From the NCBI GenBank assembly GCA_965655095.1, contig OZ296650.1, positions 9,424,001 to 9,488,000 of the forward strand: a stretch of 64,000 nucleotides of DNA. The letters run 5' to 3'. Below are positions 22,601 through 38,368 of the stretch, piece by piece. Source of the stretch: Haplodiscus bocki. Its lineage: Eukaryota. The notes under the pieces were generated by a model that was given only the letters and a program-made list of their open reading frames with translations, was not told the DNA's origin and made no database searches. Position 1 is the first letter of the stretch; each line of letters begins with the position of its first letter. A program made the translations under genes and the position numbers.

Positions 22601-23184
22601 TTTTTTTGTTTGGAGTGAATAATTTTACAATTTGAAAAATCGTTACCAAATTCAACAATGCCTTCATTTTCAACTGTAATATTATCGCCTTTTAATACAT
22701 CATATTTTTTATACAAATATTGGTATCCGTTTTTTACTGTTAAATTTTCATACTCTTGAAGAGGAATATATTTTTGATGTAACAAGAAGTAAATGTTTTC
22801 TTTACCGTGAGCAAATGGGAATTTAACATCGTTAAATCCATGTTCTGAAAAATTTTTTACAATTTCATCATTTGTTTCGAAACTAAAAATTTTCACTCCC
22901 ACATGATTATATTTTTTATCTTCAATTTTGATAAGAAAATTTTCATCATTCAAATTTCTAATGTGATATTCTTCACTGTGTTCATTCGGTCTAAACAAAT
23001 GTAGATAATCAAAGCTTATAAGTAGTTCAATTTCTTGATGAGCACTATTTCTATACGGTATTTTATAAATTTGAGCTTTTTTTAAATCAGTAAAAATTAA
23101 AACCATATAAATAATAAATCCATTACGCGTTAACACCAAGGTTTCGTGGTTATTTAATCCTGGTGTTTTGAAATTATCATTCAT
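22576..23184 (-). CDS. Hypothetical protein, 202 aa, resembling a giant-virus (NCLDV) uncharacterised family
   Basis: Intact ORF with TAAATG start; motif KY.HVG.KIFSFETNDEI...SEHGFNDVKFPFA.GKENIYFLL..KYIP. Family resemblance is from memory only. Confidence 0.7.
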   Translation of the reverse strand: MNDNFKTPGLNNHETLVLTRNGFIIYMVLIFTDLKKAQIYKIPYRNSAHQEIELLISFDYLHLFRPNEHSEEYHIRNLNDENFLIKIEDKKYNHVGVKIFSFETNDEIVKNFSEHGFNDVKFPFAHGKENIYFLLHQKYIPLQEYENLTVKNGYQYLYKKYDVLKGDNITVENEGIVEFGNDFSNCKIIHSKQKKIIVIFLI

Positions 23185-23244
23185 TTATATAACTTATAGA
23201 AAAACAAAGATTTTTTGGATGAAGATGATTATAATAAACTCAAC

Positions 23245-23787
23245 TTATGTTTGCAAGTTAAGAAAATATATATGTTTAACTACTTTCGACTCTAATATTG
23301 GTCCAGGTTGTTGCATATAATATCTGTCGGTCATATTGCCATGGCGTGAGACAAATTTTAATGTCAGATTTCTTATTTTCTTATCAGGAGTACAAGTAAT
23401 ATCATACTTGGAACTTAGATTTTCACGAATATTGTTACATATCATTTTACCAGCTACCTGGATATAAACCGTACCCACATCATAAATTTTATACTAATCG
23501 AGGAAAGTAGGTAATATTACATGCAAGTCAAACTCGTCTTTATATACTTTTTTTTCTACAATATCATTTGTTTTACATGACATATAAATTTTAAATTCAA
23601 TAAATTTATCGTTATGACTAATAATGTTCTCATTAAGGATTTTTTCAACAACATCCCAAAAAATATCATTATAATTATAAATATTTGTCACATAATTTTT
23701 CATAAGGTAATGTCTTTTTGTCTTTTTATGACTATTTTTAGATTTATGATTTATTGATTTATCACATATATTACAATAATAACTCAT
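23245..23787 (-). pseudogene. C2H2-type zinc-finger protein (broken into ORFs 23494-23787 and 23245-23478)
   Basis: YYCNICDKSINHKSKNSHKKTKRH finger; C-terminal YYMQQPGPILE resembles YYLKFPIPMCH of ORF 37862; TAAATG start. Confidence 0.65.
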
Positions 23788-23963
23788 TTATTACAACTAA
23801 ATAAAAATAAAACGAACATTAAAACAAACTTACTTGAAGAAAACGTTAACTTTGTCGATAACACAAAGAAACGAAAGAAAAAGTTATGGATATGTACAAT
23901 TAAACTTGTATTTATACTGTTTATTCTTACAATTATACGAGTATTTCGATAGGATACAAAGTA

Positions 23964-34147: not shown

Positions 34148-37100
34148 ATGGAAAATAGTCGCACATGTGAAGTTTGTAATGTTAATGTTCTTATAGCAGC
34201 GTTTGTAAAGCAATTGAGAAAAAAAACAATTGGAAATTATAGAACAAAAAGAAATGATTATACCAGATTGGTTATTCAAAGAAGAGCAATCTCCTATCAA
34301 GAAAAAGATACAAAAGGTATGTAAACATAAAACATTAAAACAATCAGCAAAACAAAAAAAAACAAATTAGATGATAAAGAATTAGCTAAAATGATGATTA
34401 ATCCATATTCTTTTATTGATGAAAACTTAAAAATTGGTTTCAAAATTAATTTAGAAAGTCATAATATTATTCATGCAAATTCTATTTTGACTATTACACG
34501 TAATTTTCCAGAAATTGCGGTTGAATTCTGATATATTAGTAAAATCGTAAAAGAGTTATCTGTTATTTATGCTAGAATAATAAATCAATTTAAATTAAAA
34601 TATCACACATTATTTTCAGCGAGCTTTTATAAAAATAATGAAGAAGATCAAAGATATAATGAAAGTGAAGTAAATATAAACTTAAATATCAATCATAATT
34701 TAACAGAATCTGTTTGTGATAACATTGATGTTAAATCTCAATTAGAACACCAAATTCAAAATCAAGAAATGAAAGAATCTGGTTGGATTTTTGATAAAAT
34801 TATTTCAAGGAAATTTTCATTTTAAAAAACTGGAGAATTATACGGTACTTCTTATGTTAAAATTCCATTGAGGTCATCTGCTATCTTAAATATTCGAAAT
34901 AATGACAAAAATTTTGTTGTATTTGGTCAATTTTAGGTAGTCTTCATCCTTGTGAAATCGATCATCCTAACAGAGTTTCAAATTATAAACAATATTTCAA
35001 TGACTTAAACATTAATGGATTCCATTTTACAAATGGAATCAAATGTAGTGATATGCATAGATTTGAGAAATTGAATAACTTATCAAAAAATATGTATGAA
35101 TTAAATTTTTACCAAGATGGTGATAAATGGAAACAAAATATAATTCCTATGGAAACTAGCAAAAATGAATCAGATAAAGTTATTGACTTATTATTTTATA
35201 AAACTTATTATGCCCTCATTAAAAAATTACATGTATTTTTAGAAAATCACAACAAAAGTTTTGTATGTAGACGTTGCTTGAATTCATATACAAAGGAAAT
35301 TGCTTTATTAAATCATAAAGAAAATTGTGGAGAGGATAACATATGTGCTATAAGAAAACCAAATGAATCACAACTGTATTGGAAAAAACTTTTTCATAAG
35401 AATCCATTATACTTTAGGATTAATGTTGATTTCGAGGCTGATAATGAGGTCGATGGTTCTAATATAGGTAATAAGACAACCAACATTTAAAGACAAAATC
35501 CTGTAATTAATGGTTGTTTCATAATATCTGAATTGGAAGATGTTTTAGAAAGTGGCTATTATGAATCTCCTTTAAGTTTTGCTAATGTAGATTGGTTTGT
35601 TAATGAGGTTGAAAAATTAGAAAACAAAATGGCTCTCTATTTTAAAAACACTAAGAAAGATATCATTATGGCACAAGAAGATAAGGAAGATTTTGATAAT
35701 AATAATAATTGCCGATTTTGTGTGAAAGAAATACTTTCTGAGAAAGTTAGAGATCACTGTCACTTAACAGGTAAATACAGAAGTCCAGCTCATAACACTT
35801 GTAATAAAAACGTGAAACAGAAAGGTAGTAATTTTATACCATTTGCATTTCATATTTTTAGTAATTACGATTGTCATACGTTTTTTAAAAGGTTATTTGT
35901 GTTTAAAAAAGATAAAGTAAAATTTAACACTAATCCTAAATCCAATGAAGAAAATAACGTAGTTAAATATGTTTGTATTAGATTCATTGATAGTTATAGA
36001 TTCTTATAAGAGAGTTTGGATAAATTAGTAAAAATTTTAGATGAAGATGATTCCAAAATTTTGAAAAAAGAATTTCCTGACAAATGGCAATATTTAAATA
36101 AAAAATTAGCATACCCATATCAATATTTCAATAGTATCGATGATTATCAAAAACCTGTTGATGATTTAAAGAAAGAAGACTTCCTCAGAAAGTTAAAAAA
36201 CAAATGTCCTGACATTGATGAAATTGAACGAACAAAAGAAATAATAAAACTGTTTGATATTAAAAATGGAGAAGAATTAACTAAATTGTATTGTAAAAGT
36301 GATGTTTTTGTATTAGCTGATGTTATCGAGAAGTTCGTTAAAGCATCTTTTGAAGAATATGGTATTAATCTTCTTCATTGTGTGAGTTTACTTGGTTATA
36401 CGTATCAATGTGCTTTGAAATATACTGATATCAAATCACAAACCCTTCAAGACAAAAATTTGATTTTGTTATTAGAAAATATTATACGAGGAGGCATAAG
36501 CAGCGTTATGGGGGATCGTTATGTACAATCTGATGAAAATAAAAAGATATTATATATGGATGCCACTAATTTATATGGTCACTCGATGTCACAATTGTTA
36601 CCAGTTGATGAAATTGAAATGTGGCATGGTGATCCTGATAACTATTCGAATTGGTTAGATGAAATTTTAGAAACACCAGATGATGCAGACATTGGCTATT
36701 TTGTTGAAGTCGATCTAAAAAATCCTGATGATATAAAAGAGAAAACAAAGAATTTTCCATTTCGTCCAGAGAACAAGAAAAATAATCCCAATAAATATAA
36801 TGATTATATGAACAATATAACACCTGAGAATTATACAAAATGTAAAAAATTAATATGTGATTGGACTGATAAAAAGAAGTATCTGATTCATTATAGAATG
36901 TTAAAATTTTATGTAAGACATGGTATGATAGTTGAAAAAATTCATGAAATAATATCATTTAAACAAAGCAGATGGTTGGAAAAATATATTAGTTTTAATA
37001 CTCAAAAGCGAAATGAAGATAAAAATGATTTTGGGAGAGACTTCTTTAAATTACTTGTTAATGCAGCTTTTGGTAAAATTTTAGAAAATGTTCGAAACCG

Positions 37101-37806
37101 TTTAGATCTAGAATTATTTAAAAAAGATGATTTTAAAAACATTATTAAACAACAATCAAATTTAACGTTCAACGGTATTCATAAATCATATGAACACTAT
37201 TATAATTATACATTCAAACAGAACCAGGTAGTTATGGATAAAGCTAAAAATGTTGGCTTTTCTTTATTGGAATGGAGTAAGTTACACATGTATGAAACAT
37301 ATTACGATACATTACAACCATATTTTGGTCAAGAAATTTTACATCTACACTATATTGATACAGATGGAATGATATTGAGTATGAATACAAAAGATATTAT
37401 CAATGATTTAAAAAATTTAGAAGATACATCCGATTTCAGTAACTCAGATGAAAATCATGAATTGTTCACTAACAAAAACAAGAAAGTGATTGGTAAATTT
37501 AAAAATGAAACTCCTAAAATATTTTGATAGAAGAATTTGTTTGTTTAGGATCAAAGGCTTCTTCGTTTAATTCTCAAAACAATGATGAAAATAAAAGCTT
37601 TTTCTAGATCTCAATCAAAACATATTAATTTTGAAGAATTATACACTTGTTTATTTGGTGGAGAATGTCAAAAAGAATGTGATAGTTATATTATTCGATC
37701 TCTTAATCATCAAATGTATCTTCAAAAAGTAAGAAAATCTACACTATCTATTTTCGACGATAAACGATGTTACATAAATGAAACTGAAAGTGAACCATGG
37801 AATTGA
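34148..37806 (+). pseudogene. polB: Protein-primed family B DNA polymerase (pPolB) with N-terminal terminal-protein/vOTU-like region and an endonuclease VII (HNH) insert; several stops and frameshifts
   Basis: Fragments 35053-35490, 35533-36009, 36016-37527 and 37582-37806 carry ExoI DFEA, EndoVII CRFC..VRDHCHLTGKYRSPAHNTCN, ExoII H.FSNYD, ExoIII YCKSDV, PolA YMDATNLYG, PolB KLLVNAAFGK and PolC YIDTDG. The upstream broken frame has GWIFDKI, SYVKIP and NND.FCCIWSIL. Confidence 0.96.
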
Positions 37807-37861
37807 AAGTCATATTTTTATTGAAAAAGATTCTTTATTTCAAAAAAATTGTTACCAATAA

Positions 37862-38368
37862 ATGAATGAAAACGAATTATATATTGTGAAAGAATATAAA
37901 TTTGATAGCCGACTCATCACTGAAATAGAATCTATAAAAGATAAACGTTTTAGAGATTGTCATAATAGTTATTTTCATAACTTTAAATATGAATTTAGCT
38001 ATGATATTAAACTCACAAATATCACTATTAATGAAACAATTAATATGACAATTTCTGATAAAAGCATGAATTTGAATGAAATAAATAAAAAATTAACAGT
38101 TGCTAGACAAATTGGTTTTATGTTCAATCAAATAAACAAAGTAACAATAAATTATTTTTCACATTTACGATATATAAACGTAAATTACTATCTTAAATTT
38201 CCAATTCCGATGTGTCATAGACAATTTTTTGGAATAATCTCACAAAATCGAGAGTATGTAGACAGTTTTTGCAATGATAGAAATAATACTTTTCATTTTG
38301 CATGTCGGAAATGGATTAAAAATTGTACGTATTTTTTTAAATTCTTTTTTATTTCTAATTCAACATAA
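37862..38368 (+). CDS. Hypothetical protein, 168 aa (paralogous to fragments at 22440-22600 and 23245-23350)
   Basis: Intact ORF with TAAATG start; C-terminal YYLKFPIPMCHRQFF..FCNDRNNTFHFACRKW. Confidence 0.7.
   Translation: MNENELYIVKEYKFDSRLITEIESIKDKRFRDCHNSYFHNFKYEFSYDIKLTNITINETINMTISDKSMNLNEINKKLTVARQIGFMFNQINKVTINYFSHLRYINVNYYLKFPIPMCHRQFFGIISQNREYVDSFCNDRNNTFHFACRKWIKNCTYFFKFFFISNST

Follow-up and report, generated by a model that had tools for sequence, protein, structure and literature searches.

TAAAT at the gene starts of a Polinton lineage in Haplodiscus bocki: a probable dependence on a poxvirus-type helper virus

Polintons or Mavericks ("adintoviruses", PMC8502044) are bounded by terminal inverted repeats and a 6-bp target duplication and encode a retroviral-type (rve) integrase, a protein-primed DNA polymerase of family B, a packaging ATPase, an adenain-like protease and a capsid protein of the double jelly-roll (DJR) type. 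All these features recur in an element found in 64,000 nucleotides of DNA from Haplodiscus bocki (assembly GCA_965655095.1, contig OZ296650.1, positions 9,424,001 to 9,488,000 of the forward strand), a stretch hereafter called the window. The mode of expression of animal Polintons, and their possible autonomy, have long been in question. The genes of the H. bocki element and its relatives start at or near the motif TAAAT, and one group of relatives carries a gene similar to that of the poxvirus RNA polymerase subunit RPO18. In comparison, the main texts searched on Polintons mention no promoter motif and report no RPO18-like gene; more generally, neither TAAATG nor RPO18 was found to be described for Polintons in a literature search of main texts.

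Among small capsid-coding DNA elements, Sputnik, mavirus and the Polinton-like virus Gezel-14T copy the promoter motif of their helper, and Sputnik and mavirus use the helper's late promoter (10.1101/2022.07.28.501842). These elements have protist hosts and mimivirus-type helpers and motifs, and their dependence was shown by infection, whereas in H. bocki it is proposed from sequence. The motif is here too shared with a large DNA virus, although the match is to the published poxvirus motif and not to promoters of the helper itself. Polinton-like viruses associated with entomopoxviruses have been proposed to be poxvirus hyperparasites that exchange genes and are built of mosaic modules (Barth et al. 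2024, PMC11296320), a proposal similar to the present one. However, they were found in the occlusion bodies of insect viruses, and the main text of that study contains no analysis of TAAAT, of a motif, of promoters or of RNA polymerase. In H. bocki, the link consists of promoter grammar and a polymerase subunit, the elements are integrated at high copy number, and the named relatives of the subunit belong to vertebrate chordopoxviruses.

In the intermediate and late promoters of vaccinia virus, TAAAT(G) overlaps or just precedes the ATG, as in the present element (PMC11980589, PMC12917281, PMC5294985). Late promoters have TAAAT followed by G and a conserved T at the tenth base upstream, which is absent from intermediate promoters but present here (PMC11980589). 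Reading of the TAAA initiator falls to the core of the viral polymerase (PMC12917281), and TAAATG is retained in salmon gill poxvirus (PMC4542343). The yeast pGKL virus-like elements use a TAAAN initiator with leaders made by slippage (PMC6211774). Unlike poxviruses and pGKL, each with genes for a polymerase of its own, the window element encodes no catalytic subunit; moreover, its signal is found on all genes and not on one class.

TAAAT at the gene starts of two Polinton families

The window Polinton is 18.3 kb long (20402-38673; 27% GC) and thus extends beyond the stretch 23182..37864 flagged in the original prediction. Its terminal inverted repeats are 210 nt long and 95% alike, the element has ends of the type AG...CT, and it is flanked by a 6-bp target duplication. 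Most genes are broken in this decayed copy of an endogenous Polinton. Its family (family 1) is very numerous, since 7599 first-look candidates, 40 of them scored, came from a search of the 1.5-Gb assembly with its capsid region; the 20 best sisters were kept for comparison.

As originally predicted, 13 of the 18 gene starts read TAAATG, on both strands (24732, 25255, 25866, 26308, 27844, 29421, 30061, 30827, 31698 and 37862 on the plus strand; 23184, 23787 and 34082 on the minus strand), and the five others (24141, 26700, 28992 and 34148 on the plus strand; 33772 on the minus strand) deviate just as had been described. TAA precedes 31 of the 723 ATG triplets in the element (4.3%, the real starts being among the 31), a background against which 13/18 has a binomial P of ~1e-14. 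Over the whole window, TAAATG is not enriched (59 seen, 83 expected) and the signal is therefore positional. Host start context does not explain it either, in line with the earlier claim: among 24 host starts, 22 have a purine at -3 and none has TAA. These starts, from tubulin, actin, histone and ubiquitin-family genes, go back to 36 pattern rows, all lacking TAA at -3 to -1, from which false matches (4), internal repeats of ubiquitin (5) and duplicate rows for histones (3) were removed; one of the 24 may be a further internal repeat. An effect of base composition or of the host Kozak context, to which the low GC content of the element could lend itself, is refuted by these controls and by AT-rich distant Polinton-like loci (see below), in which the motif occurs at only 3/18 starts; its probability is practically nil.

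The motif is kept across the family. With sister starts anchored on coding sequence only, TAAATG lies no more than 15 nt from where the start is expected in 221/260 gene-copy pairs (17 genes, 20 sisters), and pairwise identity among sisters is 0.89-0.95 at -3 to -1 versus 0.46-0.68 at -20 to -4. The starts of the integrase and of the putative penton-1 gene had been read as decayed TAAATG, which the sisters bear out. In contrast, the helix-turn-helix (HTH) gene at 24141 and the gene at 28992 had been taken for genuine exceptions; since most sisters carry TAAATG at all four starts (Table 1), these represent decay in the window copy. The polymerase of the window type has TAAATG in 0/10 sisters, with TAAAT within 12 nt before the ATG in 8/10.

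A capsid-family search revealed a second Polinton family (family 2; 5490 candidates), whose capsid is 26-28% identical to that of the window element and from which 20 of 126 scored sites were taken. Polymerase types and accessory genes are common to both families. When the natural open reading frames (ORFs) of both were clustered by N-terminus, 47 gene families with TAAAT-type starts were obtained (n=429), with TAAATG in 369 starts, TAAAT 0-6 nt before the ATG in 41 and neither in 19; the clusters left over consist mainly of ATGs internal to broken genes and also include the window-type polymerase. Family 2 uses TAAATG but also the variants TAAAT-ATG and TAAAT-A-ATG, hence the conserved unit is TAAAT and not the stop codon. 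Three other polymerase types which occupy the same slot have TAAATG or TAAAT-N4-ATG in 13/13 copies, one polymerase lineage toggling between these two forms, and the integrase start carries the motif in 30/30. The suggestion that the exceptional start of the replication gene reflects an early/late split therefore fails, the more so as the window-type polymerase itself mostly has TAAAT.

A device of translation, in which a stop before each start would ensure coupling or frame isolation on long read-through RNAs, could account for the 369 starts, out of 429, whose TAA shares the frame of the ATG. However, few genes use it as the stop of the upstream gene (17/369, with an ATGA overlap in 9), the first genes of divergent pairs carry it too, and the out-of-frame TAAAT-ATG variants recur. 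TAG or TGA stands in place of TAA in 2/371 starts, yet these codons end 81/284 near-full-length genes; the families having been picked for a TAAAT majority, this comparison covers substitution within families. A translation device is thus largely refuted and very improbable, and in these sequences TAAAT has the properties of an initiator, not of a stop codon.

A scan of metagenomes for integrases yielded 28 Polinton-like loci, of which 24 are distant and 4 close, at 58-79% identity; one of the close loci has a capsid of 75% identity. The motif is present at 7/10 ORF starts in the close relatives and at 5/214 in the distant loci (counts include spurious ORFs), with 0/64 in three long Polinton-like loci. 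As judged from this small sample of sequences, the TAAAT motif characterises this lineage rather than Polintons generally. One distant, AT-rich metagenomic integrase (L321:186-1247; 27% identity) has a TAAAT-ATG start with a T-rich upstream region and possibly represents a second motif-bearing lineage.

Late-promoter signature and an RPO18-like gene

Upstream of TAAAT, the frequency of T peaks at the 10th base (0.74 versus a background of 0.40; 38 gene families, 572 starts), inside a T-rich patch, and T is in the majority there in 30/38 gene families. The values are 0.76 and 0.73 in the two Polinton families, 11/18 starts of the window copy have this T, and 669 non-start TAAATG sites used as a control give 0.24. 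The G+C content at -13 to -9 of starts is 8% versus 27%. At the level of sequence, both Polinton families match the published vaccinia late-promoter signature, that is TAAAT(G/A) at or near the start together with the -10 T.

Family 2 carries a 145-aa gene that matches Pfam Pox_RNA_pol (PF03293, E 6e-21). This RPO18-like gene is found in 6/20 family-2 elements and in at least 150 copies in the assembly (456 candidates; all 150 of those scored passed the cut-off), and Polinton genes lie next to it at each of 10 further sites inspected. One example outside the window (L221:3802-4239, minus strand) lies in a variable accessory block and has its own TAAAT start. Judging by a median dN/dS of 0.20, with 227/227 pairs below 1, the gene is under purifying selection in family 2. 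Among PDB sequences, vaccinia rpo18 is the only significant match of the protein (E 1e-13; profile 4e-18), and cellular Rpb7 gives no match there at E<=10. A predicted model of moderate confidence (pLDDT 70) has salmon gill poxvirus as its top viral fold and, against the PDB, vaccinia first, above Rpb7 of RNA polymerase II (Pol II) and asfarvirus. A search of 1.84 billion representatives yielded 60 matches; 10 were looked up, and the 3 virus-named ones among them come from the sea otter pox, carp edema and salmon gill pox viruses. Sequence and predicted fold place the protein nearer to poxvirus RPO18 than to cellular Rpb7. In vaccinia, rpo18 contacts the capping enzyme (PMC12917281). The presence of a poxvirus-like RNA polymerase subunit in family 2 points to a pox-type helper.

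The explanation that we consider probable is that this Polinton lineage is wired with late promoters and depends on a helper: a poxvirus-type virus, co-infecting with it, likely supplied the RNA polymerase for its transcription, and the element would be a virophage-like parasite of that virus. Transcription by a polymerase of the type of poxviruses or other nucleocytoplasmic large DNA viruses had been proposed from the window copy; the conserved TAAAT, the late-type -10 T and the RPO18-like gene of family 2 speak for it, while the early/late split attached to it did not hold. Transcription by a viral polymerase is something we infer from these sequence features.

A number of points weigh against this explanation. 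The counts of the -10 T are not fully independent, because gene families share intergenic cassettes, and the sequence is 73% AT. RPO18 is found neither in the window nor in any of the 20 family-1 sisters. The RPO18-like protein is only 26-34% identical to poxvirus proteins, the Polinton proteins form a clade of their own (in unrooted trees that have long branches and contain few references), and the nearest Atlas clusters are Rpb7-like proteins of Nucleocytoviricota without a name. Thousands of germ-line copies require nuclear access, which cytoplasmic transcription alone does not explain; mavirus combines cytoplasmic transcription with nuclear access. Finally, VLTF3, D13 and Rap94 were not found in the assembly, a weak negative with controls equally silent, and a search of the assembly for Rpb2 gave only host Pol II and Pol III, host Pol I being missed too; the host Pol II second subunit is closest to the mammalian and fly ones. 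The absence of helper genes from the assembly neither supports nor refutes a dependence on a helper, since a helper need not integrate.

Several of these points bear on the nature of the helper. The same virophage-like mechanism could involve another cytoplasmic large DNA virus with a TAAAT initiator (asfar-, ego- or unnamed Nucleocytoviricota), as the low identity to poxviruses, the scores of the Nucleocytoviricota clusters in the Atlas (0.93-0.94) and two metagenomic relatives of the RPO18-like protein as close as the poxvirus ones would suggest. However, every virus-named relative among those looked up is a poxvirus, asfarvirus and iridovirus proteins rank below poxvirus ones by fold, and TAAATG with a -10 T is a feature of poxviruses, asfar-, asco- and mimiviruses having other motifs (PMC5294985). 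Such a helper seems rather unlikely; as far as these sequences tell, the helper is likely a poxvirus-type virus, so far not found in this animal.

Other transcription signals were counted as well. TTTTTNT, which under poxvirus early transcription should be avoided in genes and placed after them, has an observed/expected ratio (O/E) of 0.62 in the sense and 0.77 in the antisense direction of element genes, and in downstream regions the counts are 29 versus 28 of 104. As to the compartment of transcription, splice donors are not avoided in element coding DNA (O/E 1.02), whereas they are in host coding DNA (0.55); AATAAA occurs at 3.5/kb in element coding DNA with no strand-specific avoidance, the host control for AATAAA being uninformative. 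The splice-donor content and, less clearly, that of AATAAA suit non-nuclear transcription and count against the possibility that host Pol II transcribes the element in the nucleus from a leaderless TAAAT start, perhaps with an element factor such as the HTH protein; the likeness to poxviruses would then be inherited or convergent and RPO18 repurposed. The huge chromosomal copy number of both families at first look, the lack of a helper in our searches, the conservation of the HTH-like gene (dN/dS 0.30) and the common occurrence of TATAAATG (A at -1 0.58, T at -2 0.59) would fit transcription by Pol II. However, Pol II starts downstream of the TATA box, so that a TATA box at the ATG would place its start downstream of the conserved start codon, and both the -10 T and RPO18 remain under selection. 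We regard this alternative as unlikely.

Gene content and layout of the elements

The features of the window Polinton are listed in Table 1. The two putative penton genes are paralogues of ~360 aa without a Pfam match, and the penton label, which stems from the original prediction, is unconfirmed. A sister of the adenain-like protease matches Peptidase_C5 clusters at 0.94-0.96, and the family-2 counterpart of the packaging ATPase matches Pox_A32. The window-type polymerase has its motifs visible in frame but does not match PF03175, in contrast to the types swapped into the same slot.

Table 1. Features of the window Polinton, with the status of gene starts here and in family-1 sisters
Feature	Position	Strand	Remarks
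Target-site duplication, 6 bp	left 20396..20401, right 38674-38679
Left terminal inverted repeat	20402..20611	+	210 nt, starts AG
Right terminal inverted repeat	38464..38673	-	210 nt, ends CT
Accessory gene, 202 aa	22576..23187	-	TAAATG start; 5/8 sisters
Accessory gene, N-terminal zinc-finger-like motif, broken	23257..23790	-	TAAATG start; 4/4 sisters
Intergenic cassette, AT-rich, partly palindromic	about 23954-24142		related copies 25067-25250 (inverted), 26532-26697
HTH-like gene, broken	24141..24575	+	start decayed here; TAAATG in 12/13 sisters; weak Pfam hints only
111-aa gene	24729..25067	+	TAAATG start; 17/20 sisters
Conserved gene, function not assigned, broken	25252..25690	+	TAAATG start; 16/20 sisters
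Adenain-like maturation protease, broken	25863..26275	+	TAAATG start; 14/15 sisters
Small basic gene, broken	26305..26535	+	TAAATG start; 8/8 sisters
Putative penton 1, broken	26697..27760	+	start decayed here; TAAATG in 13/20 sisters
Putative penton 2, penton-1 paralogue, broken	27841..28950	+	TAAATG start; 19/20 sisters
Conserved gene, function not assigned, broken	28992..29405	+	start decayed here; TAAATG in 14/15 sisters
177-aa gene, hydrophobic middle	29418..29954	+	TAAATG start; 14/17 sisters
Packaging ATPase, Walker A visible, broken	30058..30815	+	TAAATG start; 11/12 sisters
Conserved 281-aa-type gene, broken	30824..31672	+	TAAATG start; 19/20 sisters
Major capsid protein, PF21738 family (DJR capsid), broken	31695..32926	+	TAAATG start; 17/20 sisters
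Retroviral-type integrase (rve, E 2e-11), broken	32930..33775	-	start decayed here; TAAATG in 18/20 sisters
Small cysteine-rich gene, broken	33790..34085	-	TAAATG start; 12/17 sisters, TAAAT within 12 nt in 16/17
Protein-primed family B polymerase, HNH (endonuclease VII) insert, broken	34148..37806	+	without TAAATG; TAAAT just before ATG in 8/10 sisters
168-aa gene adjoining right end	37859..38368	+	TAAATG start; 8/11 sisters

At least four polymerase types fill the same slot in otherwise collinear elements (the window copy; L061, L069, L249, L044), sometimes inverted, and the window type is present in both capsid families with up to 86% identity. Similarly, polymerase modules swap between lineages of nematode Polintons (10.1101/2023.08.22.554363). 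Upstream of the window polymerase, a 62-nt divergent promoter region (34086-34147) separates it from the small cysteine-rich gene and contains facing TTGAA/TTCAA motifs; a similar layout recurs before other divergent gene pairs. One family-1 copy has an accessory gene with a TAAATG start and a weak match to GNAT acetyltransferases (L068:7836-8492, minus strand; E 2e-4).

The intergenic cassettes, of which further ones lie at 22331-22470 and 25720-25863, are AT-rich, 60-190 nt long and found in either orientation. They are common to both families and their presence varies by gene junction among copies; they could serve as promoters or terminators, or constitute a small mobile unit. The termini are mosaic as well: segment 20575-22310, present only at the left end in the window and holding 51-nt tandem repeats (21180-21555), is found at both ends of some sisters (L033/L034, L043/L044), as long terminal repeats. 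Outside the Polinton, the window contains a 17-nt tandem array (48848-48983), a dispersed host repeat of ~300 nt (1017-1310, 2736-3029, 11254-11547, 63803-63969) and two long open frames on the minus strand (~46900-48300 and 5100-5800; 466 and 246 codons, 43-44% GC).

Expression through a helper virus and its meaning

If the lineage is indeed transcribed by a poxvirus-type helper, each Polinton gene would have a transcript of its own, initiated within TAAAT and provided with a 5' poly(A) leader by slippage. All genes, including those for the polymerase and the integrase, would be expressed in the post-replicative phase of the helper, and the element would spread as capsids and re-integrate by means of its own integrase. 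In the weakest step of this scheme, the RPO18-like protein may enter the helper polymerase, where it would replace the stalk subunit or act as a decoy for it, and might thereby bias the enzyme towards the Polinton or cripple the helper.

A bolder picture, which we hold only tentatively and rate somewhat below an even chance, is that the germ line of this animal has been colonised by endogenous virophages, in their thousands, of a poxvirus-related virus yet to be discovered, and that these virophages run wholly on the late transcription of their helper. One family would have captured the stalk subunit of the helper polymerase to redirect or sabotage it, and the integrated copies would constitute an inducible defence against poxviruses.

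A gene-by-gene poxvirus late promoter together with a captured polymerase subunit offers a sequence-level test of Polinton autonomy, and promoter grammar could sort Polintons into helper-dependent and other kinds. It also predicts the 5' ends of Polinton RNAs and the existence of an unknown poxvirus-type virus in this host. If true, the virophage lifestyle, shown in protists and suggested for insect poxviruses, would extend to integrated elements of the animal germ line.

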